Origin: a bacterium | GTDB lineage: Bacteria > Patescibacteriota > Minisyncoccia > UBA6257 > GWB1-50-10 | Direction: 5' to 3' | Length of the DNA: 64,000 nt | Assembly (NCBI GenBank): GCA_002686365.1 | Contig: NZBZ01000004.1 | Location: 27,079 to 91,078, forward strand | In this document: piece after piece, positions 6,096-21,254 of the stretch | How the letters are laid out: every line of letters begins with the position of its first letter | Position numbering within the stretch: the first letter of the stretch is position 1 | Translations under genes and position numbers: made by a program | Notes under the pieces: model-generated | Database searches by the model: none | The model's input: only the letters and a program-made list of their open reading frames with translations | Told to the model about the DNA's origin: nothing

Positions 6096-6105
6096 GAATC
6101 ATCAC

Positions 6106-6462
6106 ATGTCCGCCCTGACCAAGGCTACGAGACTTCTCGAGGCTCGTAAGGCGAGCATCGCAAGCGCGTTCGGTCTTCAGTCTTTCGCTGGTTTCGTCAA
6201 TGTCGTTCCGTCAGCGGAGACTCGTGTGATCTGCGTTGCTGTCGGATCGTCCGGCAACCAGAGGTACGTTCGTTTCCGTGTGCGATTCAAGCGCAACGGA
6301 GACTTCTACCGCGTCGAGATGACTCCGCTCGGCCGCAATACTCTCAAGGTCTCTAAGACCTTCGATGACCTGAAGGCGGCTCTCGCGACAGAGTGCAATG
6401 CGGACGCTGCGACCGAGCCCGCGACAACCTCCGCCCTTCATGGGGCTATGGCTCCCGCTTAG
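6106..6462 (+). CDS. Hypothetical protein (GC-rich islet A)
   Basis: ORF begins exactly where composition jumps to high GC; AGGGGAA SD-like motif 11 nt upstream. Confidence 0.4.
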   Translation: MSALTKATRLLEARKASIASAFGLQSFAGFVNVVPSAETRVICVAVGSSGNQRYVRFRVRFKRNGDFYRVEMTPLGRNTLKVSKTFDDLKAALATECNADAATEPATTSALHGAMAPA

Positions 6463-6640
6463 AGGAGACCAAGGAGGCTCTCCTGGACTGGACTGGATTC
6501 TCTTGCCGGCTCACCGGCATCACGGAGGCGTTGCACGTATGCGCCTCCTTTTATTCGAAAATGTTTAGTTGTAGTGAGGTATTGACAATATGTATTTGGT
6601 GGGGTATTTTAATTGTTAGAAATGGAAATGGAGGTGCTTC

Positions 6641-7081
6641 GTGGCAGCACCAGCAACTAAGTTAACAGTTGCTCTTCACGCGAAAAAGCTTACGAATGAG
6701 GAGCTTACAGCTTTCGCGTCAGCCATACAGGGAGACGCGTGCTCAAAGGCGGAACTTCAGGAAGAGACGTGGTTCAACAAGGTCGAGGCGCTCTTCGATG
6801 ATGACGGTGAACTGCCTCGGGCTGTGAAGGATGCTGTTTTCGTCCTTGTGCAACAAAGGGCGTGCGTGGCAGCAGCTGCTCTTTGTGCGGAAGAGCTTGA
6901 GGATCATGAGCTTGTAGCTTTCGCGTTGAGCGTAAAGCTGGGCAGATGCTCGAAGGCGGATCTGCAGAAAAAGCCGTGGTTCAACGAGAGGATTGAGGAG
7001 CTCTTCGATGATGACGGCGAGCTGTCTCAGGCTGTGAAGGATGCCGTCTTCGCTCTTGCAAATACAAGAATGGAGGCGTAG
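6641..7081 (+). CDS. Hypothetical protein with internal ~55-aa tandem duplication
   Basis: GTG start preceded by GGAGG 6 nt upstream; halves TAFASAIQGDACSKAELQEETWFNKVEALFDDDGELPRAVKDAVF / VAFALSVKLGRCSKADLQKKPWFNERIEELFDDDGELSQAVKDAVF. Confidence 0.45.
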   Translation: MAAPATKLTVALHAKKLTNEELTAFASAIQGDACSKAELQEETWFNKVEALFDDDGELPRAVKDAVFVLVQQRACVAAAALCAEELEDHELVAFALSVKLGRCSKADLQKKPWFNERIEELFDDDGELSQAVKDAVFALANTRMEA

Positions 7082-7108
7082 GTATAAGCGTAATGGGTTT
7101 GGTACTAT

Positions 7109-7894
7109 GTGCTGAGCCTATCCATCCCTTTAAATTTGGCGGCGAGTTTTGATGAAGAGAATTCCGTTGTAGATTTTTCTTGGGCGAGTTCGACGGATTC
7201 TGATACGTTAGATAATTTAATTACATACGAGGTGGCGCATACGACTTCGACGGATTTGTCGGGGGTTTCGTGGAGTTCGGTTGGGTCGTTTTTGCAGACG
7301 AGTTTGGATTTGGGTTTTGGGGAGACGTATCTTATTGGTGTGCGAGCAAAGGATGATTTTGAGAATGTGTCGGATTCGACGGAGATTTTTTATGATGTGC
7401 CTGTTCCGGAGTTGCCGCTTACGATTTCAAATGTCTGGTGGGGATATGTTAGTAGTTCGGCGGCGCAGGAACTTAGTTTTGAATTTAGTAATTATGATGT
7501 GCTTGTGTCGAGTACGTGGACTGTTGCGGCGTTTTATTTGAATTCGATTGTGCCGGATAAAGGCCCGTGGCCGACAGGCTTAAATAATCTTTTGAATGAC
7601 GGTGAGGAGAAAATTTGGGTTCGGTATCAAGGGTGTTTTGGAAGTGCTATTACGACAGAATTTTCTTTGGCAGGGGATGGTGCGTCGTGTGCTGGCGATG
7701 TCAGGAATAGTTATGATCCGTCTGGGGTGGACTTTCCGGAAGTAGGGGAGGTGGTTATGGAAGTTAGTCCGCCAGCTGGTGAAGAATCTCATTCTTCAGA
7801 GGACTATATTACAATTCTTTTTCTTTCATCTAGTGATGGAAGTAATTTCCAACAAGTTGGGAGGTACCCTGTGCCGATTTACTTTACGGAGTGA
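7109..7894 (+). pseudogene. FN3-like domain protein fragment (no N-terminus or signal peptide, GTG start directly after an in-frame stop)
   Basis: Sequence ITYEVAHTTSTDLSGVSWSSVGS...TYLIGVRAKDDFENVS resembles a fibronectin type III fold but the ORF starts mid-domain; C-terminus FQQVGRYPVPIYFTE is repeated downstream. Confidence 0.4.
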
Positions 7895-7895
7895 T
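7849..7895 (+). repeat. Copy 1 of ~45-bp boundary repeat (encodes FQQVGRYPVPIYFTE-stop at the end of ORF 7109..7894)
   Basis: Near-identical to 8968-9015; partial copies at 10186-10215 and 10727-10750. Confidence 0.8.
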
Positions 7896-7908
7896 GCTTT
7901 GAAAACAT

Positions 7909-7955
7909 TTATTTTTACTTAGTTTAGTATCCGGCCGGATACTAAACTAAGTTTA
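7909..7955 (+). terminator. Perfect 18-bp-arm palindrome (ACTTAGTTTAGTATCCGG/CCGGATACTAAACTAAGT) followed by a T-tract and GGGAGG
   Basis: Read directly; rho-independent terminator geometry. Confidence 0.6.
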
Positions 7956-8085
7956 GGTTTTTGGGAGGGGGGGGTAGTGCTTGACGCGTAGTATGATGTG
8001 TGTTACTTTTTGTATCGGCAGGGTGGGGTACATTTCGGTAGCATGAGGTATGTTGCCTTGTGCAAAACAGCGAGGATGGAACAAC

Positions 8086-8874
8086 ATGTCGTTGGTTTTT
8101 ACAGATAAGGTAGCAAGCGTTGAAGTACTGGATGCGTTCCTTGTGGACAAGGGTGTTGACCCGGGATTCATCTCGAGGATGGTGAATGCTTTGACTCCGC
8201 TCGTTCAGGAGTATGAGCCCGAGGGACGGGAAAGGGAGTGGCCGCATCTCCTCGAGGCAGGATTTATGGACCCCGAGAGCCTGGGGAGGGCGATCGTTGG
8301 GGCGACCGGAGTAGATTTGCCCATCGTCTTGGTTCCACTTGCGGACGTTGAGTGTCCGCCCAATTGGGTCGCGGAGGACTTCAGGCCTTTGATTCAGGGG
8401 ATGAGCCGGCTGGCTCTCGATGCGTCGCTCGGCGCTCCCTTGTACGGGATGCTGGGGCATGATCCAGAGGCGCAAGTGGATGGTGATCCTCACGGAATCG
8501 TTCGGATGCTCGAGACCGCGTTCGCCACACACATCTGGCATAGTGATGATACGGGACAGCCCCTGATGACGGATGGAAACGTCGTGGGCTTCCTCCGCGG
8601 CCTCATTGTCCAGAGACTCCTCGAAGACGGAAACGCAGGGGCGATAAATGAGGCTAGTGGGTCTTCACTCGCGGACAGCGCATGGGCGCTTATCCGAAAG
8701 GTCCTCATTGAGGCGGTGGAAGGAAGGTGTGAGGAGGCAGAGAAAACATGCACGCTTCTCAAGTTCTGGATGACGAACTGGGTCTGGGGAAGATCCAGCG
8801 AGGATGTGGGCATTGGTAGGGGGATGATTGTTTTCGCGGGCGAGACACATCCAGCAAGATTGGTGAGTGTATGA
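8086..8874 (+). CDS. Hypothetical protein (cassette 1 of GC-rich array)
   Basis: ATG at 8086 with GAGGA SD 7 nt upstream (ORF track begins at 8050); GC-rich, Ala/Gly/Arg-rich product. Confidence 0.45.
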   Translation: MSLVFTDKVASVEVLDAFLVDKGVDPGFISRMVNALTPLVQEYEPEGREREWPHLLEAGFMDPESLGRAIVGATGVDLPIVLVPLADVECPPNWVAEDFRPLIQGMSRLALDASLGAPLYGMLGHDPEAQVDGDPHGIVRMLETAFATHIWHSDDTGQPLMTDGNVVGFLRGLIVQRLLEDGNAGAINEASGSSLADSAWALIRKVLIEAVEGRCEEAEKTCTLLKFWMTNWVWGRSSEDVGIGRGMIVFAGETHPARLVSV

Positions 8875-8967
8875 TTGTTTTCGTGGGCTAGGCTTGGCCA
8901 GAACGAATGACGATCATCGTCATCTCACATCGAACAAAAGGAAGGCACGTATGCCTTCCTCTTTTAT

Positions 8968-9015
8968 TTCCAACAAATTGGGAGGTATCCTGTGCCGATA
9001 TATTTCACGGAATAG
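8968..9015 (+). repeat. Copy 2 of boundary repeat (encodes FQQIGRYPVPIYFTE-stop as an orphan remnant, stop 19 codons upstream)
   Basis: Aligned by eye to 7849-7895 with a few substitutions. Confidence 0.8.
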
Positions 9016-9016
9016 G

Positions 9017-9056
9017 CAATGTTTACTCACTCGGAGAGTAAACATTGGGTTTTTTG
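9017..9056 (+). terminator. Hairpin CAATGTTTACTC...GAGTAAACATTG followed by GGTTTTTTGGGG
   Basis: 12-bp inverted repeat arms plus T-tract. Confidence 0.6.
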
Positions 9057-9214
9057 GGGATTTTGTTGGTGTATTTTTGATACATTGACAAAATGTGTGA
9101 TAAATGTTACTTTCTGTTTAGATCTAACTCTAGTCTAAATGTCATTTTTCATTGCGATCTGAGCAGCTGAACACTAAGTTTCGTTCATGTCTCGTACGCA
9201 CGAGGAGTGTTACG

Positions 9215-9715
9215 ATGTTAGGCATAGGACCGACGTCTAAGATACAGGCAGAGAATCTTCGTGACTTCGTTGGCCCCCTCTGCACGCGTTTCTACGTGAA
9301 GAGGCTCAGAGCCGCTCTCGTGAAGGAGGGGAGGGTTCTACTAGATGTGGGGTTGACTGAGAGGAAGTTGGAGAGTCTTCGTCGGCAAGGTGAGAAGCGG
9401 GCTGGGATGTATCATATGTCCTGGCGCAGGAGGAACTATCTTCATCTGGTGCGGCATCATCTGGGACTGGCGCATCTCAATCTCTTGCAATGGCTTCTGG
9501 CGCAGTTCGTTACCCGCCTTCCGCTCATGGGTCGGATGTGGGGAGCTGCTTTGTCCTCGATGGCATTCGTGCTCAGAGTTCCTGTTCCGGATGATCCTCA
9601 CAGGATCATTCGCGAAGATTACGAGCGGAGCATAGCGGAAGAGGATGATGGTGGTCTCTGGGGTCTAAGCCAATCTTCTCCTTCCTGGACTGGAGGGAAT
9701 TCTCATGACAGATAA
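9215..9715 (+). CDS. Hypothetical protein (cassette 2)
   Basis: ATG with GAGGAG SD 7 nt upstream (ORF track uses an upstream TTG at 9152). Confidence 0.4.
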   Translation: MLGIGPTSKIQAENLRDFVGPLCTRFYVKRLRAALVKEGRVLLDVGLTERKLESLRRQGEKRAGMYHMSWRRRNYLHLVRHHLGLAHLNLLQWLLAQFVTRLPLMGRMWGAALSSMAFVLRVPVPDDPHRIIREDYERSIAEEDDGGLWGLSQSSPSWTGGNSHDR

Positions 9716-10109
9716 ACTTCGGTTCTCGCGGGATGTGCTGGAGTTTCGCGATCCTCGGCCGGGGGAGGTCAAGGAGTCGAAGGAGCCGTCGCCAATACAG
9801 TCGTGGCGGATGAGGATCGTCGGTGAGGGGCGGGATGGTGTTTACGACGTCTTCGTTGATTTGGATGACGTCGTTTCCATCAACTTCTCGATCGACGATG
9901 CTAGCGTGAGGATTCTCATCAATAACAAGAGGTATTCGCTTCGGGCGTATACTCGTGTTGAAGGGTCTTCTCAAATAGTGGGCCTTCGTCCCGCGATTCT
10001 TCATCGGCTGTGTCCGGGAGTTGCTCTGAACTGCCCGTGGCAGTCAGAGCATGAGTCACAGGTATCATTGGATGACCTGGGCATCATCGAGGCGCAATTG
10101 GTGCGGTAG
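9705..10109 (+). CDS. Hypothetical protein (cassette 2, overlaps the previous gene by 11 nt)
   Basis: ATG with GGAGGG SD 8 nt upstream; overlapping two-gene arrangement. Confidence 0.4.
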   Translation: MTDKLRFSRDVLEFRDPRPGEVKESKEPSPIQSWRMRIVGEGRDGVYDVFVDLDDVVSINFSIDDASVRILINNKRYSLRAYTRVEGSSQIVGLRPAILHRLCPGVALNCPWQSEHESQVSLDDLGIIEAQLVR

Positions 10110-10185
10110 GTCACAGGCAGAGAGGTTCTGCTTGCTGTCGACGTAAGTGAGGGTTTGTCCAACGGACGCCCTCTTTTTTGTTTGT

Positions 10186-10215
10186 TAATATCCTGTTCCG
10201 ATATATTTTGAGGAG
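10186..10215 (+). repeat. Degenerate copy 3 of boundary repeat (TATCCTGTTCCGATATATTTTGAGGAGTAG)
   Basis: 25/30 identity to copy 2 by eye. Confidence 0.5.
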
Positions 10216-10239
10216 TAGGTTTTTTATGTCGGTGCTTGA

Positions 10240-10261
10240 CACACTATGTATAGTGTGTCAT
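10240..10261. promoter_or_regulatory. Perfect palindrome GACACACTATGTATAGTGTGTC overlapping a TTGACA hexamer
   Basis: Read directly; operator-like. Confidence 0.4.
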
Positions 10262-10299
10262 TGTTATATATAACTATCGTTCATTTAAATTGTTATGTA

Positions 10300-10352
10300 G
10301 CAGGTTAGAGCAACCGAATTGGTCTTTTTGGGAGATTAGTTCGGTTGCTCTA
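10300..10352 (+). promoter_or_regulatory. Long hairpin (GTTAGAGCAACCGAA...TTCGGTTGCTCTAAC, 15-bp arms) with TTTTTGGGAG in the loop
   Basis: Read directly; upstream of ORF 10398. Confidence 0.45.
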
Positions 10353-10397
10353 ACTATACGGTGCCGTTTGTCACTCTTGCAGGAGGAATGAGAAGTA

Positions 10398-10637
10398 ATG
10401 GTTTCTGATAAGAAGTCTAGTGAGGTCTGGGACGATGACATGACTGAGGAGGAGCGACTCGCTTTTCTCGAGTTGCTTGAGGGGTGTTCTCTCATCAGTC
10501 GGGAAAACTATCCGGATCTTTCCGACCTTGCTCAGAGGAGTTTCGACGACCTACCTTCCGCGCTCTGTGGCTGTCTCCGTTTGGCACGAGAAGGCGATGG
10601 ATTTAAGGCCATCTCATTGATGGATGCAACTCAGTAA
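10398..10637 (+). CDS. Small acidic hypothetical protein (cassette 3)
   Basis: GGAGG SD 8 nt upstream of ATG; 79 aa. Confidence 0.35.
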   Translation: MVSDKKSSEVWDDDMTEEERLAFLELLEGCSLISRENYPDLSDLAQRSFDDLPSALCGCLRLAREGDGFKAISLMDATQ

Positions 10638-10726
10638 GTAGGTGATGCGGTGGCTGAGTTACAATAGTGCACGTTTACGGCACTAAGTGGAGCGTTCGCG
10701 AAATAAGATTCGCTGCGCTCCCTTTT

Positions 10727-10750
10727 TATTTTAGGAATAGGCAATGTTTA
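10727..10750 (+). repeat. Remnant 4 of boundary repeat (GGAATAGGCAATGTTTA shared with 9009-9025)
   Basis: 17-nt identity to the distal part of copy 2. Confidence 0.45.
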
Positions 10751-10907
10751 TATGTTGGACTTTTAAACAAAATGTAGTCCCTCGTCGTCCCCCGACGTTA
10801 CGTCGGGGGACCCGCTCGGGATCCTGAATTTTCTAGTTTCCCTTGCCAAGGCGGGGTCAAAGAAAATTCGGGGGTTTTGGGAGGTTAAAAGTAGTATAAT
10901 TATAAAT

Positions 10908-11195
10908 ATGAAGAAGATATTTTCGTTTGTTATTTTATTATCACTCATTTCAATTGGAGGGACAGCTTTAGCTCAAGAGGCAGAGCTTCCGGATCCGGGA
11001 CTTACTCCTGATAGTCCATTTTATTTTCTAGAGAGACTTGTAGAGGGGATTGGCACTTTCTTTACTTTTGGGAATATTAAGAAGGCTGAAAGGTATACTG
11101 CTCTTGCTGCTGAAAGATTGGCTGAAGCAAAAGCTTTGGTGGAGAAGGGAAAGTCAAAACTTGTAGAAAAAATCCTTGCAAGGTATGAGGATTAG
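10908..11195 (+). CDS. Secreted hypothetical protein (signal peptide MKKIFSFVILLSLISIGGTALA)
   Basis: Typical Sec signal peptide; same frame as the next ORF, separated by a single TAG. Confidence 0.45.
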   Translation: MKKIFSFVILLSLISIGGTALAQEAELPDPGLTPDSPFYFLERLVEGIGTFFTFGNIKKAERYTALAAERLAEAKALVEKGKSKLVEKILARYED

Positions 11196-11255
11196 TTAGT
11201 AAAAGCTTCATTTAGAAAAGAGGAGGCTAGAATTAATGGGAAGGATACGAAGAGA

Positions 11256-11993
11256 GTGTCTGAGATCATAACTGAAGCCACGAATAAACATCTTATTGTA
11301 TTAGGGGTAGTATTAAAAAAAGTACCAGAAGAAGCGAAATCTGCTATTCAGCGGGCAATTACAGTTTCAACTAAAGAGGGGCTTGAGAGAGCAGTAGTAG
11401 AGTTTAAGCAAAAAAAAGATTCTAGTACAAATTATGAATTGATGAGAGCTAAATGTTTAGAATCGGGAGCGCCGCCAAATGTATGCGAGTCTCTTGAAGA
11501 GGCTCTTCAGAGTGGTATATCACCGAGAGAGATTTGTGAAAAATCAGGAGGGCCGCCAGAGATGTGCGAGATAATTCCTACCAAGGGCTTTAAATCGTTT
11601 GGACAGATTAAATCTTTCTGCACGGAATCAGGAGGGCCGGCAGAAATATGTGAATCGCTTGAATCTAACTGTAGAGAATTTGGAATAACAAAACCGGATG
11701 ATTGTTTTCGTGTTCTTTCAATTGCTACAGTAACGACTTATCAGGAGACTTCCCCTACAGCTTTTCCTATGCGTACTTTGGAAGCTGAGCGGGGTGCGGG
11801 CGTGGAATTGCAGAGCTGGGAGGAGCTTGAAGTTAGCTGTTTGAAAAATGGTTCAAGAACCGGAAAGACTCCGGAGTGGTGCGCGTCTCTTGAAGCTATA
11901 TGTAAGGAAGCGGGAGCAGAAACAGCAGATCAGTGTTATCGCGGAGTAGATTCAAAAGGGAAGTTAATACACCCATCAAAATTCTCACTATAG
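11256..11993 (+). CDS. Cys-rich repeat protein (four SG(G/A)P(P/A)E-x-CE-x-LE repeats)
   Basis: GTG start; repeats SGAPPNVCESLEEA, SGGPPEMCEII, SGGPAEICESLES, TPEWCASLEAIC. Confidence 0.45.
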   Translation: MSEIITEATNKHLIVLGVVLKKVPEEAKSAIQRAITVSTKEGLERAVVEFKQKKDSSTNYELMRAKCLESGAPPNVCESLEEALQSGISPREICEKSGGPPEMCEIIPTKGFKSFGQIKSFCTESGGPAEICESLESNCREFGITKPDDCFRVLSIATVTTYQETSPTAFPMRTLEAERGAGVELQSWEELEVSCLKNGSRTGKTPEWCASLEAICKEAGAETADQCYRGVDSKGKLIHPSKFSL

Positions 11994-12045
11994 GGTGTAG
12001 TCATAGTTAGGTTTTTGTTTGTTGAGTTGCTGTTTTAGGGTATAA

Positions 12046-12240
12046 TTGATGTATATGAAAAAAGGCATGCAATGTGGTGGTGGCTGCGCTGGCGCAATTT
12101 ATCTATTGGGCTTGGTTGGCGCGGCAATATATTACATTTCTACTGCAGCGGGTTTCTGGCTGGGTGTTTTAGGTTTACTTAAGGCGCTTGTATGGCCTGT
12201 TTTTCTTGTTTACGAACTTCTGAAGTTTTTGGGAGCGTAA
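12046..12240 (+). CDS. Small 2-TM membrane protein (64 aa)
   Basis: Two hydrophobic helices, Gly-rich. Confidence 0.35.
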   Translation: MMYMKKGMQCGGGCAGAIYLLGLVGAAIYYISTAAGFWLGVLGLLKALVWPVFLVYELLKFLGA

Positions 12241-12287
12241 GTTTCTTGCTGTATAAATCTAAATAGAAAAATAAAATAGGTTTTGAT

Positions 12288-12515
12288 ATGAAAGAAAAAA
12301 TTAACTCGTTTTTTGATTCGTTGTGGTTTAATGCCATTGCGAGCGTCGTATCTATTGGGGTGCTTGTTGAGCGTGTAGTTACAAATTATCTTTCTGGAGA
12401 TTATTATCATGAATTTATTTTGATAATAGTTTGGGTGGTTATATTGTTTCACTTTATAGCAGCTACTATAAAAGCTAATAAGAAAAGAAGAGAGGCTGTA
12501 TTAAATAATAAATAA
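12288..12515 (+). CDS. Small 2-TM membrane protein (75 aa)
   Basis: Hydrophobicity pattern only. Confidence 0.35.
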   Translation: MKEKINSFFDSLWFNAIASVVSIGVLVERVVTNYLSGDYYHEFILIIVWVVILFHFIAATIKANKKRREAVLNNK

Positions 12516-12528
12516 TAATAAAATATAT

Positions 12529-12729
12529 ATGCGTTTTGATAAATTGAACAATCGGTTTAAGTGGGGAATTATTGGAGGAGTTCTCGGAGGAGTAATTGCT
12601 ATAGTTGGTTTTTGGATATTATCGCCTCAAACAGACTCGGTTGTTCTTTTTGTATTACTTAGGGTTGTAATAGGAGCAATAGTTGCAATGATATTTGGGC
12701 CCATAATTACAACGAGATTAGTTAGATAA
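12529..12729 (+). CDS. Small 2-TM membrane protein (66 aa)
   Basis: Hydrophobicity pattern only. Confidence 0.35.
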   Translation: MRFDKLNNRFKWGIIGGVLGGVIAIVGFWILSPQTDSVVLFVLLRVVIGAIVAMIFGPIITTRLVR

Positions 12730-12752
12730 ATCTAAATAGAAATTAAAGTTCA

Positions 12753-12778
12753 AAAATCGTCACGAAGGCGATTTTTTG
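12753..12778 (+). terminator. Rho-independent terminator (AAATCG-loop-CGATTT then TTTTT)
   Basis: Read directly, downstream of 12529..12729. Confidence 0.5.
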
Positions 12779-12828
12779 ATAATGTGGTGTGAAATATTGC
12801 TTTTTTCTTTAGGGTATGGCGTACTGGT

Positions 12829-13320
12829 TTGCAGGTGTCGGGGTGGAGACTAATTACTATTTCGGATGCTGGAGGGGGATTTGTGAAATATCCTGTTGCT
12901 TTCGCTCTAGTTATTATCGCGTTTGTTGTTGTTGGAGACGGAGAGCGTGTGGGCTATGCGGTTTTGTATCTGACGTCCTCTCGAATTTCGGAGTATACGT
13001 CAGAGCAGATCGCAGACATGCAGAGCGCCTTGGAGGCTCGGTTCGAAGAGGTGTATTGGAGAGAGAAGATTCGCATTAGCGAATTTCATCCTCGCGCCGA
13101 GTTTATTCTTCCCGTTTTTGCCAGCTTCTTTGCTGATGATCCTAGGGTGCATGTGGAGCTTACGTTTATCATGCATCGTGAGGGCAGGGATCATATCATA
13201 TATGCTGACGGCGTGACAGCGCCTCAGCTAAAGGCGGATGAGGTGGCGCTGGATCGCGCCTTTCGGGCAATGTGCATCATTGTCTTGATCGCTGACAATG
13301 CGTCAGTGGCAGTGCAATAG
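12829..13320 (+). CDS. Hypothetical membrane protein (GC-rich islet C)
   Basis: TTG/GTG start uncertain; alternative overlapping ORF 12816..13079; high GC keeps several frames open. Confidence 0.3.
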   Translation: MQVSGWRLITISDAGGGFVKYPVAFALVIIAFVVVGDGERVGYAVLYLTSSRISEYTSEQIADMQSALEARFEEVYWREKIRISEFHPRAEFILPVFASFFADDPRVHVELTFIMHREGRDHIIYADGVTAPQLKADEVALDRAFRAMCIIVLIADNASVAVQ

Positions 13321-13459
13321 CGAGTGCAGCAGTCGAGGGGATATTATTGAGGGCTTGTCTATTGGGCATCCCTCTTTTTTGTTTATTTGTAAGCCGGATT
13401 TTTAGATATTGGAAATTATTGATTGTTTTTCTTGTTTATGGTCTAATTGCTTTTAGTTT

Positions 13460-14125
13460 GTGTACTGGGAATCTCGCGTGTCGTCCTGTAACTGTTCCGG
13501 AAGGAGGCCTCTAGTGGCCTTTCGTCGATCGTTCAGAAGGGCAGTGGACTTCGCTGGGATCGGGCCGTTCCTCGTGTTCTGCTTTCCTTACCTCTGGACG
13601 GATGTGTTCGTCGGTGGTGGGATCGAGTCCCTGTTAGCTCCCACGCTCATTTTGGTCTCCGCGGCCATCTTGTGGCTTGGGCGTTCTGTGGCCACGCTCT
13701 TTGAGGGAGACTGTAAGACTCCTAAGAGCATGAGGCAGTGTGGACTCCTTATCGTGCTGTTGTGGATTTCCACAACGTTGAGCACGCGGCTCTTCCTCGG
13801 TCTTCAGTGGGTTCCACTCGCCTTCCTGTCTGCGCCCATACTCTGGCATCTTGGGTGGGAGACATACTGGATCCGGCTCGCGTTCTGGCGATATTCCTAT
13901 AGGATAGAGGGTGACTTTCACGGCGTTGGGCCAGAAGATCTTGCCGAGATTCTCAGGGGTGCGACTGGGCGGGTCTGGGATGTTCCGGCTGTTCCTAGTG
14001 ATCCGTATATTCTTCCCTGGGATCCTCCGTCCAATGACGCGCTTGAGGATGCTGTTCTGTGGATTGGAGGGAAGCTGGGCGACGACGACAAGGTTCGAAT
14101 CGTCCCGTACTACAGGGGGTCTTGA
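13460..14125 (+). CDS. Hypothetical polytopic membrane protein (GC-rich islet C)
   Basis: GTG start; about four TM helices; 221 aa. Confidence 0.4.
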   Translation: MYWESRVSSCNCSGRRPLVAFRRSFRRAVDFAGIGPFLVFCFPYLWTDVFVGGGIESLLAPTLILVSAAILWLGRSVATLFEGDCKTPKSMRQCGLLIVLLWISTTLSTRLFLGLQWVPLAFLSAPILWHLGWETYWIRLAFWRYSYRIEGDFHGVGPEDLAEILRGATGRVWDVPAVPSDPYILPWDPPSNDALEDAVLWIGGKLGDDDKVRIVPYYRGS

Positions 14126-14139
14126 TTCGTGTTCGAAAA

Positions 14140-14172
14140 CCGGATAACTGCGTGTTATCCGGCCTTTTTTAT
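14140..14172 (+). terminator. Rho-independent terminator CCGGATAAC-TGCGT-GTTATCCGG then CCTTTTTT
   Basis: 9-bp perfect stem plus T-tract immediately after ORF 13460..14125. Confidence 0.65.
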
Positions 14173-14178
14173 TTCGAT

Positions 14179-14274
14179 ATATCGAGATTCTGACATATCG
14201 AGATTTAGAGATTTTGATATATCGAGGTGTAGAGATATTGAGATATCGAGATTTTGATATGTTGAGTTTATGAG
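14179..14274. repeat. 12 tandem units of an 8-bp repeat (consensus ATATCGAG) running into the mscS start codon
   Basis: Perfect 8-bp periodicity parsed by hand; same unit recurs inside capA at 20704-20791. Confidence 0.85.
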
Positions 14275-14863
14275 GGCTTGGGGTATACTGTTTTATATGG
14301 AAAATCTAAGTTTTGAATTCCTAAAAACTACTGGATTAGAGCTTTTGAGTACTTATGGATGGAAGATATTTTGGATATTAGTACTCTTTTTTGTTGGGCG
14401 AATAGTTCTTACTCTTGTTATTCATCGGATAGTGCGATTTGCAAGTGATGGGGATAATTCTACGACAACAGCTGTAGAGAAGCGCGCAAATACGCTTGGG
14501 CATGTGCTTCGGACTGTTGGGAATGTGGTGATTTATATTATTATCCTTCTTATGATTCTTGATTTATTTGGCGTGGATATTCGGCCAGTTTTAGCTGGCG
14601 CAGGAGTTTTGGGGCTTGCAATTGGGTTTGGAGCGCAGACTTTGGTGAAAGACTTTGTTTCAGGACTTTTTATTATTTTAGAGAATCAGTATGGAGTAGG
14701 AGATAGGGTAAAGATTGGGAGTGATGAGGGGAATGTTGTGAAAGTTTCTATGCGGTCTACGGTTTTGAAGGATGATGATGGGGGAATGCATTATTTTTCT
14801 AATAGCTTGGTAAAGAATGTGGCGAATCTTTCGAGGGTGAAAAAGAAGGAGGAGGCAGCTTAA
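14270..14863 (+). CDS. mscS: Small-conductance mechanosensitive channel MscS family (short form)
   Basis: TM helices followed by the MscS beta-domain signature LAIGFGAQTLVKDFVSGLFIILENQYGVGDRVKIG. Confidence 0.8.
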   Translation: MRAWGILFYMENLSFEFLKTTGLELLSTYGWKIFWILVLFFVGRIVLTLVIHRIVRFASDGDNSTTTAVEKRANTLGHVLRTVGNVVIYIIILLMILDLFGVDIRPVLAGAGVLGLAIGFGAQTLVKDFVSGLFIILENQYGVGDRVKIGSDEGNVVKVSMRSTVLKDDDGGMHYFSNSLVKNVANLSRVKKKEEAA

Positions 14864-14865
14864 AT

Positions 14866-14890
14866 TTTCAATTCTCAATTTTCAATGGCC
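14866..14890. repeat. AATTTTCAATTCTCAATTTTCAAT repeat (TTTTCAAT family)
   Basis: Same family as 1985-2094 and 50955-51075. Confidence 0.5.
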
Positions 14891-15007
14891 CTTTGGGGCT
14901 TTTTTGTTTGGATTTGACCAAAGCTTGGTTTTTTGTAAGAGTTTGGAGTGGTTCTTGTCTCGTTCGTGCTCGTCACCTTCTTCTGAGATTCTGAGAGAGG
15001 ATACGTA

Positions 15008-15409
15008 ATGTCTCCGAATATGAATATTAAGCTTTCGTTCCTGGATAGTCTCCCATTCTGGGGAGTGATCATCTCAGTGCTCTTGGTCCCCTTGGTCCCC
15101 GTGTATTTGTTTCACTTCTTCCTGCGCGAAATCGGCATGCCATGGAATCTGCTTCCTGTGTTTCCGACTGTTCTCGCGTTTTACCTTGGCTACACCTGTC
15201 GAAGGTATGGTAGTCGATCTGACGGCAGGGGTATTATGCGAGTTGCGGGCTCTATCGCGCTTGTCCTTGGTGTTCTTTGCGGAGGGGTTGGCGCTGCAAT
15301 TATTGTTAATGGCCTATGCGCCTTTTTCTTTGTAGGCGCGCCGATACTTTTTTGGGGTATTGGCTGGGGCATTGCTTGGGGCATTGGCTTAGCCTTGCCC
15401 CGCATATAA
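15008..15409 (+). CDS. Hypothetical membrane protein (small GC-richer islet, GAGAGAGGA SD)
   Basis: 133 aa, 3-4 TM helices, GWGIAWGIG tail. Confidence 0.35.
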   Translation: MSPNMNIKLSFLDSLPFWGVIISVLLVPLVPVYLFHFFLREIGMPWNLLPVFPTVLAFYLGYTCRRYGSRSDGRGIMRVAGSIALVLGVLCGGVGAAIIVNGLCAFFFVGAPILFWGIGWGIAWGIGLALPRI

Positions 15410-15467
15410 GTTGGCTAGATAGGGGAGGTAGTTTTCGTAGGGGATCTCTTGCAGCGTGCAGGAGATT

Positions 15468-16673
15468 TTATTTTTCAAATCTTGCGACTTCTTGGAAGAT
15501 GTTTTTTGTGTTTGCCTGCGTGTTCATGTTTTCAATAATCGCGGATATGGTGGTTTGGAATCCTCTGAATATTTTTGAGTTTGGTTCTGGGATGATGCGG
15601 CTTTGAAATAGTCCAATCAAGTAGCCTTTATAGAAGATGGGAGAGCCGGAGCGGCCTCCATAGGCGTCTGGAGAAGATTCGGTTTCGAGGACGTATGGAG
15701 TTTCTTCGAATGCTTTGTCTCCGGCATAGACTTCTGTAACTTTTGCGTCTTTTGTGAGAAGGCGAAATTCTTCAAATGAACTACTTCCTATTGCTTGATA
15801 GGCATATCCGGGGACTACAACTCTTTGGTCTTTTATTATTTCCAGCCATTCTTTTGGGTTTGAAATAAGGATTGGAGAGGCAGGGAGGCGGGGATTTTCA
15901 TGTTCGAAGTATTTACTTTCATTTTTTCCTGTGACTTCCAGAATGGCATAGTCGAGTTGTCGATTTTCATCTTCAGAGAGCTCTGTCTCTTCCGGGAGGT
16001 ATGCAAGGCGTGCTGTGAAGTCGTGTTGGATGCCGGAAGTGATTTTTAGGTCGTAGTAGGCGTATGGATATTTTTCATCTGGGAGAATTTCTCCATTTAC
16101 TCGGAGAATGTGTACATTGCAGGATGTTAGTTTGAGCGCTATGTCTAGATCCGGATCGTTATATGCCCAGCTGGTCCATTCAGGGTCTACAACATGTCTG
16201 TTTGTAAGAATGTATGATTCTTCTGTATAGGTATTTTCTTTGATAATTACGCCGGATCCGCGGGCGATTGCTGTATCTCCGTTGTCGTTTTTGAAATTGC
16301 AGGCAAGTCCTACAACAGAACGAAGGTCAATTGTGCGAGGTTCGAGGGTTGGAATTTTTTCAGTTTCCTGCTCGATTGGTTCAGGTTCTTTTATCTGCTC
16401 TGGCTTTGCTTCTTCTTTTTGTTCGGGCTCTGGTTCTTGTGTTTTAGCTGGTTCAGTACTTTCTGGTTCTTTGGCAGGAGGCGGTAGAGAGGGGCTTTCG
16501 ATTATTTCGAGCATTTCCGGAGGCATTGTATTTTCAGCTTCTTTTGGCAGTTTTGGGAGTTCCGCCTCTTCTTTTGTGTCCTGCGTTATCTCATCACTTG
16601 TTTCCGGTGTTTGGAAGGCCATTGTTAGTCCTAGGATTATAAGGACGAGAATTGAGACGATGTATTTAAACAT
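15468..16673 (-). CDS. Secreted or anchored trypsin-like serine protease with Pro/Glu-rich linker
   Basis: N-terminal TM/signal segment, PE-rich low-complexity linker, TNRHVV (His) and GGRSGSPIF (Gly-x-Ser-Gly-like catalytic Ser) motifs. Confidence 0.6.
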   Translation of the reverse strand: MFKYIVSILVLIILGLTMAFQTPETSDEITQDTKEEAELPKLPKEAENTMPPEMLEIIESPSLPPPAKEPESTEPAKTQEPEPEQKEEAKPEQIKEPEPIEQETEKIPTLEPRTIDLRSVVGLACNFKNDNGDTAIARGSGVIIKENTYTEESYILTNRHVVDPEWTSWAYNDPDLDIALKLTSCNVHILRVNGEILPDEKYPYAYYDLKITSGIQHDFTARLAYLPEETELSEDENRQLDYAILEVTGKNESKYFEHENPRLPASPILISNPKEWLEIIKDQRVVVPGYAYQAIGSSSFEEFRLLTKDAKVTEVYAGDKAFEETPYVLETESSPDAYGGRSGSPIFYKGYLIGLFQSRIIPEPNSKIFRGFQTTISAIIENMNTQANTKNIFQEVARFEK

Positions 16674-17173
16674 GTATTTACGATAGGGTTGTTTTTGGAT
16701 TGAGGCAAGGCCTATTAAAAGCGTAAAGGGCAGTCCCGCGTTGCACGAGGTGCCCTTTCGTGTTCCACACGTCTTGAAGCCTGTGGGGACTCATACTAAC
16801 TTTCTTCATGATGGGTATGTGCGCCGTTTGCCTCGCGGACACGCAACCCTGCAGCGAAGGCATGTGAAGAAAGTTCAAGAGCTTATTTTATTTTAGCATT
16901 TTCATTGGGGTTGTAAAAATTGGAACGTACCTAGCTTCCTAAAGTGGAAGAGGTCCGTTCATGATAGCCGGTCCCTGTTGGCGAGGAGCTTGGTTACAAC
17001 AAGCTGGGCAGGGATGGCAATATAGTGGTGATGTCACGATATGTGCGATCTGCGCGTTTCTTGGTCTCTCGTGCCAGGAGGGAATCTATGATATGCATGA
17101 GTGGTACAAGAAACGCCATTGGGTACCTTTTTTACTTTGCTATAAATTGTTTTTTATGTCAAGTCGTCTATTT

Positions 17174-17635
17174 TTATTCGCAGTTTGTAGTTGAGGAATT
17201 TTTATTGCCTTCTCCTGTTGCTGTTTTGTAAAGATTTGTTGTTACTTTATTTACAAGTCCCTGTTCGTCATTTATATCTTGGAGTTTTTTCAGAATCGTT
17301 TTTGTCTCTTGGAGTTTTTGAGCGAGTTCTTCCTGCTCTCTGTCTACAGGCTTTGGAACCTCTCCTTCCTCCGCATCATCAGTTTGGGTTGGTAGGCCGA
17401 GTTCTTTTTTAATATCCTCGATGTTTTTTTCAAGCTGCTCTATGAGCTTTTCTCTCCTCTGGGCTGGAGTGAAGATTATAGGCTCTATTTTTTCTTTTAC
17501 AGAGTCTGGTGTGATTTTGGATATTGTGTTTTTTATACCAGAGGTTGCGCTTTTTTTAATATCATCTGGAACAAGATAGGTTGCACCTATTATTAGGGCT
17601 ATTACTACTCCTATTTTTAGAATTGTTGCTAACAT
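17174..17635 (-). CDS. Membrane-anchored coiled-coil hypothetical protein
   Basis: Probable start MLATILKIGVVIALIIGATYL; charged helical remainder. Confidence 0.4.
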   Translation of the reverse strand: MLATILKIGVVIALIIGATYLVPDDIKKSATSGIKNTISKITPDSVKEKIEPIIFTPAQRREKLIEQLEKNIEDIKKELGLPTQTDDAEEGEVPKPVDREQEELAQKLQETKTILKKLQDINDEQGLVNKVTTNLYKTATGEGNKNSSTTNCE

Positions 17636-17680
17636 ATGTGTATACTCATAATATATTTTTTTAATGGAGTTGTCAGTTCT

Positions 17681-18211
17681 ATGATTGCAATACTTCATAA
17701 TATTCGGAGTGTTTATAATGTTGGGTCTATATTTCGGACTGCAGATGCCTGTGGAATAGAGAAGGTGTATTTGTGCGGGATAACGCCTTCGCCTTTAGAT
17801 CAGTTTGGAAAGTATCGGCAGGATTTTTCAAAGACTGCTCTTGGGGCGGAGAAGACAGTCGCGTGGGAGAAGATTAGTTCTACTACGCGTCTTTTGGATA
17901 AATTGAAGAAGGATGGATTTCAGATTTTTGCGGTGGAGCAGTCTACGAAGTCAGTTCCGTACCACAAACTAAATCTTACGAAGCCCGACTTCATAAGATT
18001 GGGGGTTGTGGTTGGTAGTGAAGTTAAAGGGTTGAGTGCAGGGGTTTTGAAGAGGGTTGATAAGACCTTGGAGATTCCTATGCGTGGTGTAGTGGTTCGA
18101 CAGGCTCACCATCCGCGACACTCGGGTCGCGGAAAGGAGTCGCTTAATGTGTCAGTTGCGTTTGGGATTGTTGTGTATCAGTTAAAGTTTGGGAATAAGA
18201 TGTATGGGTAA
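17681..18211 (+). CDS. TrmH/SpoU-family RNA 2-prime-O-methyltransferase
   Basis: MIAILHNIRSVYNVGSIFRTADACGIEKVYLCG matches the SpoU methylase N-terminal signature; ATG at 17681 preferred over ORF-track start 17636. Confidence 0.8.
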   Translation: MIAILHNIRSVYNVGSIFRTADACGIEKVYLCGITPSPLDQFGKYRQDFSKTALGAEKTVAWEKISSTTRLLDKLKKDGFQIFAVEQSTKSVPYHKLNLTKPDFIRLGVVVGSEVKGLSAGVLKRVDKTLEIPMRGVVVRQAHHPRHSGRGKESLNVSVAFGIVVYQLKFGNKMYG

Positions 18212-18698
18212 GGAGTTAGAAAAAAAGTTTGTTTGGATTGGAGTACTTTTATTTGTTTTGGGAGGTGCTTGGTTTTTATTCAGGCCTTATTCTAATGTTC
18301 CAGAGTCAGGTCTTGAAACATTGGTTAGCGTAAGTGTTGGAGAGAATGTTTTTGAGGCAGAGGTTGCGGATTCAATAGAGGAGCGAAGCAGAGGCTTGTC
18401 AGGCAGAGAGGGCCTGGAAGATGGGCGTGGAATGCTTTTTCTTTTTGAATACCCTGCTGTTCAGGGATTTTGGATGAAAGATATGAAGTTTCCAATTGAT
18501 ATTATTTGGGTTTTGGATGGGGAGGTGATTGGATTTGAGGAGAATGTGCCTATGCCTTTGTTTGATATTTCTGAGTCAGAACTGCCTGTGTATTTTTCGC
18601 CTGAAGAAGTAGATATGGTTCTTGAGATTGGCGCTCATGAGGTAGAGAGGCTTGGAATAGAGGTTGGTGATTTGGTGGATATAAAAGACCCCTCTTGA
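18204..18698 (+). CDS. DUF192 (COG1430) family protein
   Basis: Signature RGLSGREGLEDGRGMLFLFEYP...GFWMKDMKFPIDIIWV; N-terminal signal/TM. Confidence 0.7.
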   Translation: MGKELEKKFVWIGVLLFVLGGAWFLFRPYSNVPESGLETLVSVSVGENVFEAEVADSIEERSRGLSGREGLEDGRGMLFLFEYPAVQGFWMKDMKFPIDIIWVLDGEVIGFEENVPMPLFDISESELPVYFSPEEVDMVLEIGAHEVERLGIEVGDLVDIKDPS

Positions 18699-18741
18699 GT
18701 CAAGAAGGGGGTTAATGCGCACCAAGATGCTGTTGCGCTTG

Positions 18742-18987
18742 TTAGGCTTTGCCTTGCTTTCTTTGTCTTTGGACGAGGCGTATGATTATATATTCTCCTG
18801 CTAAGGCGATTAATAGCCAGGATATGATGACCAGAGCCCTTTTGAGTGTCACGGGTTGATTCATCCACTGCTCTGTTAGCTGTAGTAGTTCCAGCGTTAG
18901 TATGGCTATGCTTGTCCATGCTAGCCACCAAACGAGTGCTAGTGCTAATAACAGTCTGATCGCCCATAACAGTCCAAGCGTCTTCAT
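18742..18987 (-). CDS. Small 2-TM membrane protein
   Basis: Hydrophobicity only. Confidence 0.3.
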   Translation of the reverse strand: MKTLGLLWAIRLLLALALVWWLAWTSIAILTLELLQLTEQWMNQPVTLKRALVIISWLLIALAGEYIIIRLVQRQRKQGKA

Positions 18988-19085
18988 GGAACTGGCCCTT
19001 TCGTGTTGCCTACGGCTCTTTCTAGTCTATTTATAGCATGTGGATAAGGTGATGTACATATTCTGGTATAATTTTTAGATATAAT

Positions 19086-20102
19086 ATGGCAAACATTGCG
19101 ATAAATGGATTTGGCAGGATTGGGAGGTTGTTTTTTCGTCAGGCATTTGGGAAGAAGGGATTGAACATTGTTGCTATTAATGACTTGGGGGGCGCTGAAA
19201 ACTTGGCGCATCTTTTGCAGTATGACTCTGTATATCGGAGGTTTGATAAAGAGGTGTCTGTGAAGGGAGATAATCTAATTGTTGGAGGGAAGGAGATTAA
19301 GCTTTTGCAGGAGGAGGATCCGTTAAGGCTTCCGTGGAGGGAGCTGGGTGTTCAGATTGTTTTAGAATCTACTGGAGTTTTTGATTCGTATGAGAAGGCA
19401 AAGGCGCATGTGTGCGCTGGAGCAAAGCGAGTTGTGATTACTGCTCCTTCTAAAGATGAGGACGGCACAGAGGGGAAGACGGTTTTGATGGGAGTAAATG
19501 ATGGGGAGCTTGAGAAGGTGGTTTTGAGTTCTAATGCGTCATGTACGACTAATGCGGCATCTCCTATTATGCAGATTCTTTCTGAAAAGCCGGGTATTTC
19601 AAAGGCAATTTTGAATACTGTGCATGGGTATACTGCGACGCAGGCCTTGGTTGATAGTCCTACTCGCGGTAAGGATGTTCGGCGCGGACGGGCTGCTGCG
19701 CAGAATATTGTTCCATCTACTACTGGAGCTGCAAGCGCTGTTTCCCGCGCGCTTCCGGATTTTGAGGGTAAGTTTGACGGAATTGCAATGCGGGTTCCTG
19801 TGATTGCCGGGTCTTTGGCTGACATAACATTTATTTCTAAAAAGAAGACTTCTGCTCTTGAGGTTAATACTATTTTGAAGAAGGCGGCAAAGGCAGCTAG
19901 GTGGGATGGTATTTTTACTGTTATGGAGGATCCTATTGTTTCATCGGATATTGTTGGAGAGCCTTATGGCGCGATTGCGGATTTGTCATTTACGAAAGTT
20001 GTTGATGGAAATTTGGTTAAGGTACTTTCGTGGTATGACAATGAGTGGGGGTATGTTTCGACTTTGATGAAGCATGTGGATCGTGTTATTTCCTTAGTGT
20101 AG
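19086..20102 (+). CDS. gap: Glyceraldehyde-3-phosphate dehydrogenase
   Basis: MANIAINGFGRIGR NAD-binding start; SNASCTTN catalytic Cys segment; WYDNEWGY C-terminal signature. Confidence 0.9.
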   Translation: MANIAINGFGRIGRLFFRQAFGKKGLNIVAINDLGGAENLAHLLQYDSVYRRFDKEVSVKGDNLIVGGKEIKLLQEEDPLRLPWRELGVQIVLESTGVFDSYEKAKAHVCAGAKRVVITAPSKDEDGTEGKTVLMGVNDGELEKVVLSSNASCTTNAASPIMQILSEKPGISKAILNTVHGYTATQALVDSPTRGKDVRRGRAAAQNIVPSTTGAASAVSRALPDFEGKFDGIAMRVPVIAGSLADITFISKKKTSALEVNTILKKAAKAARWDGIFTVMEDPIVSSDIVGEPYGAIADLSFTKVVDGNLVKVLSWYDNEWGYVSTLMKHVDRVISLV

Positions 20103-20138
20103 TTGAGTTTTTTGTGAAAATAGAGGTAGGATGAGCCC

Positions 20139-21254
20139 ATGAGATATTGGGTTTTTGTTTTTGTTCTAGCCCTGATTTCGTTTGGTTTTTCAGGGGTGCT
20201 TTATATTGTCAGAGATTTTGATTATGTAGTGCAGGGCACAGAGACTGCTCAGCTTGAGGTTGGCTTTAACAGAATGCTGGGCAAGGTCCAGCCTGAGGAT
20301 TTTGAGCTTTTATTTGTCGGAGATGTGATGCTCTCCAGAGGAGTTGGTGCGCAGATGCTTAGGCGTCAGGATTTTTATTATCCGTTTCGGCGGATTGCGC
20401 TTACTTTGCGGGGAGCGGATTTTGTATTTGCGAATCTTGAGGGTCCAATTTCAAATCGCGGGATAAATCAGGGGTCAGAGTATTCTTTTCGGGCAGACCC
20501 GAGAGTTGTGGATGGTTTGAAGTTTGCTGGATTTGATGTTTTGTCTTTGGCTAATAATCATGCTTTGGACTGGGGAAGGGAGGCGATGTTTGATACTATA
20601 GATATTTTGGAGACGAATGATGTGTATACGGCTGGTGCTGGTGAGAATTTGGATTTGGCGAATCAGCCGGCTGTTTTATGTGTGGAGGATGGGACGTCAA
20701 AATATATCGAGATATCGAGATATCGAGATTCTGAGATGTCGAGATATCGAGATGGCGAGATTTTGGGATATCGAGATGGCGAGAATTTTTGTTCTGGGAT
20801 TAGTGTTGCAGTTTTCGCATATACGAATTTGTATCCATTGGGACTTGTTGCCAAAGAAGATTATTCCGGTGTGAGTGATTTTCGGCTGGTAAGGATTTTG
20901 AAGGATATTCGCGCAATCCGCGACGAAGTCGATTTTGTTGTTGTTTCATATCATTGGGGCGAGGAATACGCAGAGGAATCAAATGAGGAGCAGAGCATGC
21001 TTGCGCATGCGATTATTGATGCTGGCGCGGATTTTATTATTGGACATCATCCGCATGTTGTGCAGGAAATTGAGAAATATAAGGATGGCTGGATTGCGTA
21101 CAGTTTAGGGAATTTTGTGTTTGATCAGGATTTTTCAGATGAGACGATGAGGGGAGCTATTCTTAGGGTTCTGGTGCGGGATGGGAGGGTTTTTAGTGTG
21201 GAAGAGCTGGGGACGAGAATAAGTTCTACATATCAGGTTTATCTTGGGGAGTAG
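20139..21254 (+). CDS. CapA/PGA_cap-family metallophosphatase-like protein with in-frame minisatellite insertion
   Basis: FVGDVMLSRGV, ANLEGPIS, SLANNHALDWG, HWGEEY, IIGHHPHVVQEIE motifs of the CapA family; internal 8-aa repeats ISRYRDSE/MSRYRDGE/ILGYRDGE. Confidence 0.75.
   Translation: MRYWVFVFVLALISFGFSGVLYIVRDFDYVVQGTETAQLEVGFNRMLGKVQPEDFELLFVGDVMLSRGVGAQMLRRQDFYYPFRRIALTLRGADFVFANLEGPISNRGINQGSEYSFRADPRVVDGLKFAGFDVLSLANNHALDWGREAMFDTIDILETNDVYTAGAGENLDLANQPAVLCVEDGTSKYIEISRYRDSEMSRYRDGEILGYRDGENFCSGISVAVFAYTNLYPLGLVAKEDYSGVSDFRLVRILKDIRAIRDEVDFVVVSYHWGEEYAEESNEEQSMLAHAIIDAGADFIIGHHPHVVQEIEKYKDGWIAYSLGNFVFDQDFSDETMRGAILRVLVRDGRVFSVEELGTRISSTYQVYLGE
20704..20791. repeat. 11 tandem units of the 8-bp ATATCGAG repeat inside the capA-like CDS
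   Basis: Parsed by hand; frame preserved, read as a 24-bp (8-aa) period. Confidence 0.85.

Follow-up and report, generated by a model that had tools for sequence, protein, structure and literature searches.

Cyanobacterial genomes carry short tandemly repeated repetitive (STRR) heptamers, 7-bp tandem arrays in intergenic spacers, and bacterial surface proteins carry in-frame coding minisatellites. In Haemophilus, Neisseria and Campylobacter, contingency loci (such as the hmw tracts) have short units, of a length that is not a multiple of three, within open reading frames (ORFs) and upstream of genes. A survey of Haemophilus influenzae counted an octamer tract as a simple sequence repeat from three units, and the hepta- and octanucleotide tracts proposed to be phase-variable have approximately 8–38 uninterrupted units (PMC2651432). 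Rickettsia palindromic elements are selfish repeats that invade coding and non-coding regions, with 728 in R. felis (PMC1166351). Here we describe two arrays of one octamer, consensus ATATCGAG, in a 64,000-nucleotide stretch (the window) of a marine Patescibacteria (candidate phyla radiation) metagenome-assembled genome (MAG; contig NZBZ01000004.1); one lies inside a CapA/PGA_cap-family gene (capA) and the other in the spacer before a gene for an MscS-like channel (mscS). We consider it moderately probable that both loci are decayed tandem arrays of one stop-free octamer, tolerated in a protein loop and in an intergenic spacer. The principal features are:

20704–20783, + strand: octamer array inside capA; 10 units, consensus ATATCGAG, encoding Y189–E215 (YIEISRYRDSEMSRYRDGEILGYRDGE).
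14171–14274, + strand: intergenic octamer array on the mscS side; 13 in-phase units.
20139–21254, + strand: capA, CapA/PGA_cap-family gene; 371 aa, with an N-terminal membrane helix at residues 2–46.
20688–20795, + strand: in-frame insertion of capA relative to the homologue P0002; 36 codons, D184–S219.
14297–14863, + strand: MscS-like channel gene; 188 aa, start supported by homologues.

As in contingency loci, the units are short, indivisible by three, and placed both within an ORF and upstream of a gene; a change of one unit shifts the capA frame, and loss of a unit is seen at another array here. Contingency tracts are, however, uninterrupted over approximately 8–38 units (PMC2651432), whereas the longest perfect run here is three units and the mscS-side array has none; the tract in capA lies mid-gene in a tolerant loop, the upstream array lies outside the −35/−10 spacer, and no length polymorphism is seen at either array in consensus assemblies. 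The arrays work like simple-sequence repeats and could act as a contingency locus, although they show a minority of its defining features. Like Rickettsia palindromic elements, the repeat occurs both between genes and in frame within housekeeping genes, its encoded peptide lies in a surface loop of an otherwise intact fold (here a modelled one), and the genome is a reduced one; unlike those elements, which are approximately 100–150 bp long, non-tandem and present in hundreds of copies, it is a tandem 8-bp unit with two arrays in about 74 kb. For the coding copies the Rickettsia palindromic element, as a selfish repeat of coding and non-coding DNA, is still the closest analogue, although the tandem 8-bp organisation is of another kind. 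With cyanobacterial STRR heptamers the window shares families of 7–8-bp arrays in the intergenic spacers of one genome, many of them heptamer arrays, but phylum and units differ and the octamer is also found in coding sequence. An 8-residue peptide repeat with differing copy number (10 versus 5 units in two lineages) recalls the in-frame coding minisatellites of bacterial surface proteins; the period of 8 bp, in contrast to theirs, is not a multiple of three, and there is no clean 24-bp higher-order repeat.

Both arrays are far beyond chance. The + strand of the whole window is strongly rich in G and T; exact copies of ATATCGAG number nine against 2.2 expected, all nine lie inside the two arrays, and none of 100 shuffles of the window gave as many. 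GAGATNNNGAGAT also occurs nine times, against 0.33 expected, and is confined to the arrays. Tandem Repeats Finder reports period 8 in capA (20704–20777, 9.2 copies, 79% matches, score 90) and overlapping periods of 8, 16, 24 and 40 on the mscS side (14171–14266, scores 46–117). Read directly, the octamer has no stop codon in any of its six reading frames, and it is near self-complementary (GATATC then GA). As a single strand the mscS-side array is self-complementary, with RNA folding z-scores of −3.5 (+ strand) and −4.3 (− strand); the array in capA folds no better than its shuffled versions (z-score −0.6).

Within the unit only AT (positions 1–2) and GAG (positions 6–8) are nearly constant. 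Five of the ten capA units are perfect, three of these being adjacent (20704–20727), and four of the thirteen mscS-side units are perfect with none adjacent, the others having up to four mismatches; no two neighbouring units on the mscS side are identical. A preliminary description of this sequence had named an 8-bp minisatellite at both places, and the arrays are indeed real, but comparison of their units shows them to be degenerate. Its eleven capA units (20704–20791) become ten, as the eleventh (AATTTTTG) has five mismatches, and its twelve units of perfect periodicity (14179–14274) become thirteen that do keep the 8-bp phase but of which four are perfect; it read the CapA peptide repeats SRYRDSE, MSRYRDGE and ILGYRDGE correctly. 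The array in capA reads as an 8-residue peptide repeat because three octamers make 24 bp, or eight amino acids. A 24-bp in-frame higher-order repeat was considered and rejected, since lag 24 gives an identity of 0.82, which does not exceed the 0.83 of lag 32.

The flanks of the two arrays are unrelated, and direct reading shows no terminal structure. A common origin of the two was also considered, on the strength of the shared variant units ATTCTGA and ATTTTG, and rejected, the flanks being unrelated; the sharing could be chance because the units are few and the strand is T-rich. The census of the host genome covered approximately 74 kb (the 64-kb window and 10 kb upstream of it) and gave two octamer arrays, with none found in the upstream 10 kb.

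The CapA protein is identical to NCBI entry CL629_01130 and to Tara Oceans contigs; it has a full-length PGA_cap match (PF09587, E-value 7.9e-74, profile positions 2–255 of 255) and agrees with the solved PGA_cap structure 8gq9. Homologues were sought in a collection of 5.8 billion proteins and the best 120 matches were examined; the closest named relatives are Wolfebacteria, Colwellbacteria and Paceibacteria. Residues H141, H272, H304 and H306 are invariant in 117 sequences, and D62 and N139–N140 are invariant or nearly so. Alignment to homologues bears out the earlier suspicion that the repeat is an insertion, of 36 codons relative to P0002 and in a variable loop. The insertion occupies a beta-hairpin turn and has Cys181 and Cys218 as its brackets, between which a disulfide would be expected; of the 120 best homologues, 85 have a loop of 15 aa at this site and about 20 others a longer one. 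An AlphaFold2 model (117-sequence alignment) has a mean pLDDT of 89.8 and an N-terminal membrane helix, and its confidence is low only at residues 191–220 (pLDDT 45–65), between strands 178–189 and 221–229; the inserted loop is probably disordered, and the peptide encoded by the array is charged and hydrophilic. By model and alignment, then, the insertion is in frame at a hairpin turn, the fold is otherwise confidently modelled and the catalytic motifs are intact; the array looks like part of an old in-frame insertion in a loop tolerant of insertions. The neighbourhood is a conserved gap-capA-rpiB-rpe-tkt cluster of core metabolism, syntenic in relatives.

The nearest homologue among the best 120 matches, P0002 (77% protein and 80% DNA identity), has no insertion. 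P0007, with 57% protein and 62% DNA identity to the window gene and third codon positions 50% identical, carries the octamer at the same loop site in five units (ATATCGAG ATATCGAT GTATCGAG ATTTCGAG ATGCTGAA); its left junction is similar to that of the window (GTCAAA...ATATCGAG) and the Cys...CSG bracket is the same. By locus, the window and L008 (the genome encoding P0007) have the capA array, and the closer relative L006 lacks it. The simplest history suggested by these alignments is one old insertion, a later change of unit number (10 versus 5) and loss in the P0002 lineage, because window capA groups with P0002 as its sister to the exclusion of P0007; the segment may instead have been gained independently or transferred. 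A peptide repeat conserved among homologues had been put forward as evidence against a switch: the repeat is present in the distant P0007 and missing from the closest homologue.

Other lineages have different hairpin-forming insertions, also in frame, at the same CapA loop. P0008 and P0013 carry duplicated GGACRTCnGAYGTCC palindromes encoding GTSDV, and P0006 carries a CCCCGCCGCGGCGGGG hairpin, a type that is also seen between genes in these genomes (for example at 33905–33930 of the window and 500–560 of L006). CapA homologues with palindromic in-frame loop insertions are located as follows:

L042, 143–1288: CapA homologue with a palindromic in-frame loop insertion.
L043, 4079–5158: CapA homologue with a palindromic in-frame loop insertion.
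L044, 1348–2418: CapA homologue with a palindromic in-frame loop insertion.

The octamer is not confined to capA and mscS. L008 has a further array, of ATTTCGAG (4.5 units, 3522–3557), in frame inside rpe (ribulose-phosphate 3-epimerase), where it encodes VFRDGDVSRFRD at a loop site; the proteins of the window and of L045, a distant, compact syntenic relative without any of these arrays, lack this insertion. A pattern search of 185,579 species genomes, a collection that does not include the host genome of the window, gave 28 octamer loci against about two expected from random sequence by our own arithmetic, a ratio uncalibrated by control octamers. Most are in rumen Prevotella and other Bacteroidales (L010–L035), which have several ATNNCGAG arrays per genome, of 4–13 units with unit positions 3–4 variable; many of these are sense-oriented and stand 9–31 nt before the start codon of a predicted gene; by eye, we take these genes to be tsaD, pdxA and tsf. 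The Bacteroidales arrays, although of the same unit, may belong to a distinct repeat family. In a Saccharibacteria genome (L023) at least six arrays of the same octamer occur in 5.3 kb, at 1548–5037, filling the spacers around genes for GT2, DnaJ and a 23S rRNA intervening-sequence protein in mixed orientation; array-like stretches are also present within the last of these genes. One further Patescibacteria genome has a perfect three-unit array. Unrelated sites, coding as well as non-coding, thus share the octamer: the window has it in capA and in the mscS spacer, L008 in capA and in rpe, and L023 in at least six arrays.

Two further searches gave minor results. A scan of viral contigs returned four contigs that share one identical stretch, in which a short ATATGGAG/ATATCGAG array alternates; one of the contigs is named as a giant-virus MAG. 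A protein search with (ISRYRDIE)x6 found only 10 proteins, of 50–79 aa and without a Pfam domain, which look like spurious ORFs and were set aside.

Gain or loss of a single unit had been predicted to frameshift capA, and simulation agrees: with one unit lost a stop is reached at codon 196, and with one gained at codon 248, both before the invariant H272, H304 and H306, while loss of three units keeps the frame. The longest uninterrupted run is three units in capA, against approximately 8–38 in the H. influenzae tracts (PMC2651432), and the mscS-side array has none. Five assemblies covering capA each match the window at 100% identity across 2.9–21 kb; one of them also spans the mscS-side array, and one additional assembly is identical to the window at mscS. 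The 90% protein cluster of CapA has one member sequence, and no near-identical variant was found among the best 120 matches, the next match being 70% identical, so that no in-frame length variant is on record. A metagenome scan for the capA flanks with a variable gap (from two units shorter to one longer) gave no matches at any gap, which indicates that this collection lacks the species; a second scan of metagenomes, anchored on the AYTNLYP codons to detect capA arrays of relatives, likewise gave no matches.

Slippage does occur at another array of this population. Over positions 1–7121 of the window, assembly ERZ11848503 (L046) shows no substitution (7,114 bp compared) and differs by one 7-bp deletion alone. 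This deletion takes exactly one ATTGGTA unit out of the (ATTGGWA)n array at 2059–2096, between dnaB and recR; coverage of this assembly is low (~5x), and an assembly artefact is possible for the loss. The array has only two adjacent identical units, yet it varies. A sixth contig, of 21 kb, has two substitutions and no indel relative to the window, and no length variation was seen in the 11 heptamer arrays that it covers. Length variation between strains, which the preliminary description suggested looking for, is absent from capA in the five assemblies and present, as loss of one unit, only at 2059–2096.

The mscS product has the MS_channel transmembrane and beta domains, matching PF21088 (E-value 4.9e-10) and PF00924 (E-value 6.2e-15). 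Homologues place its start at ATG 14297, since the gene call of NCBI (188 aa) aligns from M10, as do 10 further homologues (177–180 aa); ATG 14270, inside the last decayed unit of the array, is very probably not the start. The array had been described as running into the mscS ATG; it ends 23 nt before the real one. Around it lie the following features:

14140–14162 (by the wider annotation 14140–14172), + strand: intrinsic-terminator-like hairpin and T run (CCGGATAAC...GTTATCCGG) of the upstream gene, directly 5' of the array.
14262–14289, + strand: promoter-like site of mscS; TTGAGT, 16-nt spacer, TATACT, a consensus match only.
14863–14886, + strand: AATTTTC heptamer array with 3.4 copies, lying after the stop codon of mscS and before the mscS terminator at 14887–14900.

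TTGAGT (14262) is within the last decayed octamer units and TATACT occupies 14284–14289, 7 nt from ATG 14297, a leaderless-like geometry. If this candidate is the mscS promoter, the array would fill the spacer between the terminator of the upstream gene and the mscS core promoter. It was also claimed that unit number changes the promoter-to-start geometry of mscS; this does not hold, since the array is upstream of the −35-like TTGAGT of the consensus-match promoter and a change in copy number would leave the −35/−10/start spacing unaltered. Tract length at mscS accordingly does not enter the spacing of the −35/−10-like sites, as matched to consensus. With the AATTTTC array downstream, mscS has short-period arrays on both flanks. 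TATAAT-like hexamers followed after 6–7 nt by ATG recur in the window at 45570–45584 (TATAAT-N6-ATG), 33960–33977, 46760–46776 and 14284–14299; judged from sequence, this layout suggests leaderless transcripts for several window genes.

In the reading of both loci as decayed, tolerated arrays, replication slippage, their probable origin, would generate and resize octamer arrays, and selection would retain only the harmless copies. The capA insertion would be old and kept in frame, its loop lying at the beta-hairpin tip of an extracytoplasmic metallophosphatase domain; array length would shift over evolutionary time with only in-frame versions surviving, and a one-unit slip would give a null allele. 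Resizing of the mscS-side array would leave the core promoter geometry unchanged. We infer no adaptive switching at the capA tract, and conclude that it is a mutational hazard and an evolutionary source of loop-length change. Several points weigh against this reading. The capA array is absent from the closest relative, which needs a loss or a second gain. Recognisable ATATCGAG units have been kept in two lineages whose third codon positions are 50% identical, and this persistence, which suggests continuing homogenisation or selection on the motif, is left unexplained by purely passive decay. The three uninterrupted units of capA are the minimum for octamers in PMC2651432, and the five assemblies are the consensus of apparently one clonal population, in which minority length variants are invisible; some on/off switching of capA may occur, because slippage in this genome is seen at an array where no more than two identical units are adjacent. 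At mscS, the promoter consensus scan gave two sites against 2.0 expected in shuffled sequence.

A true contingency locus, in which octamer slippage reversibly switches capA at high frequency, varying a surface polymer, while unit number tunes mscS, is unlikely. CapA-family proteins are annotated as envelope-polymer enzymes, a class typical of phase variation. PMC8437040 describes phase variation of capsule genes in Campylobacter. The unit length is indivisible by three, one unit gained or lost truncates CapA at codon 248 or 196, three units in capA are uninterrupted, and a heptamer array differs by one unit between otherwise identical assemblies. Set against this, half of the capA units are decayed and the mscS-side array has no two adjacent identical units, where H. 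influenzae hepta- and octanucleotide tracts have approximately 8–38 uninterrupted units (PMC2651432); the tract lies mid-gene, in a loop that has insertions in many lineages, and capA sits in the conserved core-metabolism cluster gap-capA-rpiB-rpe-tkt. The five assemblies are identical and no other near-identical protein is among the best 120 matches, and the mscS-side array, upstream of the −35-like hexamer, is neither between promoter elements nor in an ORF. The phase-variation switch of the preliminary description is mechanically possible for capA but, with a decayed tract and identical assemblies, unsupported; as a phase-variation switch the finding is weak.

We think it quite improbable that the octamer is a mobile selfish element, a hairpin-forming array moved by a trans-acting enzyme as in Rickettsia palindromic elements or REP elements and their transposases, landing in coding and non-coding DNA alike and surviving where it lands in frame, although the same octamer is found at unrelated loci of one genome (in the window, L008 and L023) and the closer relative L006 lacks the capA array that the window and L008 have. 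The near-palindromic unit has no stop in six frames, the mscS-side array folds much better than shuffled sequence, other palindromic insertions occupy the same CapA loop, and Rickettsia palindromic elements enter coding and non-coding DNA (PMC1166351). Yet there are only two arrays in about 74 kb of host genome, they share neither flanks nor terminal structure, and the capA array folds no better than shuffled (z-score −0.6); no transposase-like gene was found among the ORFs scanned against Pfam, most window ORFs being outside that scan, and the junction features that window and L008 capA share fit one ancestral insertion, not repeated hits. Very little weight, finally, is given to a functional cis-element, a periodic protein-binding platform or structured DNA or RNA near promoters of which the capA copy is a by-product. 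In the window and in other phyla the AT...GAG positions are retained and the bases between them differ, the Bacteroidales ATNNCGAG arrays stand 9–31 nt upstream of predicted start codons, and the self-complementary mscS-side array adjoins a promoter-like site. Cross-phylum matches were, however, chosen by the search pattern itself, their enrichment being uncalibrated by control octamers, and orientation relative to genes is mixed at the Saccharibacteria locus; an 8-bp period disagrees with the DNA helical repeat, neither a binding protein nor a matching RNA family was identified, with Rfam outside the search, and the coding copies in capA and rpe argue for mere tolerance.

A broader proposal, which we regard as doubtful, is that stop-free, self-complementary 7–8-bp arrays form an undescribed, coding-compatible repeat class in Patescibacteria that spreads between loci, fills spacers by promoters and terminators, and repeatedly enters, in frame, the surface loops of housekeeping enzymes (capA, rpe) as well as prepilin leaders. 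The wider pattern comprises one octamer that recurs in frame, at one and the same enzyme loop, between lineages with only 57% identity, the octamer also in a second enzyme (rpe) of one of these lineages, heptamer arrays that flank and partly encode type IV pilin genes, and two assemblies that differ over 7 kb by nothing but a single-unit slip. If such a class exists, slippage may be the fastest mutation class in these organisms and a built-in source of variation in protein loops and expression; if the pattern is general, array slippage would be a main source of micro-variation in these minimal genomes and a practical strain marker in metagenomes. In the literature searched we found no description of short-period repeat families in Patescibacteria genomes, and searches on octanucleotide phase variation and Patescibacteria tandem repeats returned nothing on this lineage.

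Tandem arrays of 7 bp occupy short intergenic spacers of the window at the following positions:

1985–2096: 7-bp array.
33885–34030: 7-bp array.
42488–42590: 7-bp array.
45533–45571: 7-bp array.
46729–46825: 7-bp array.
48496–48576: 7-bp array.
50957–51071: 7-bp array.
52577–52610: 7-bp array.
57512–57543: 7-bp array.

The heptamer arrays are mostly around type IV pilus genes (pilB-, pilC- and pilin-like) and usually occur as two inverted partners with the potential for long hairpins: (TAGCTTT)n is partnered by (CTAAAAG or AAGCTAT)n, and (AATTTTC)n by (ATTGGAA)n. Because the match of this second pair needs G-U pairs, it would form only in + strand RNA. In two prepilin-like genes a (CTAAAAG)n array, at 33975–34030 and at 46774–46825, encodes the leader peptide (MFLFFLKAKSYKLKAERG/FTLLE and M..FSFFLKAITYKLKARSG/QSLIE), with the N_methyl motif directly after. 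As a layout for phase variation, 7-bp tracts placed at the 5' end of pilin genes are more classical than the octamer of capA; the units of these tracts are imperfect too. A conserved TTTTATAATAGATGTATG motif is present ahead of the pilin-like genes of the window.

The mscS gene lies in a part of the window that differs between strains and relatives. A strain-variable block spans 7121–18770: L046 diverges fully past 7121, and three other assemblies begin at 18713–18767. The distant syntenic relative L045 lacks 6.1–15.4 kb of the window, including mscS, its array and many small hypothetical ORFs; G+C content rises to 0.49–0.53 at 6–10 kb, and a Pfam scan of the ORFs in the island around mscS found no mobile-element genes.

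Two further coding repeats were seen. A CTAGAAG/CTAAAAG/CTATAAG array at 54401–54431, within the triosephosphate isomerase gene, encodes FLEAKSYKLEA just before the conserved ILYGGSV; it replaces a native helix segment, because alignment to solved structures shows no insertion. A 24/27-bp tandem repeat at 36796–36925 lies in the − strand ORF 36755–37486, which encodes a ribosomal protein L25/TL5 (Ctc-like), and appears to be a repetitive extension of that protein.

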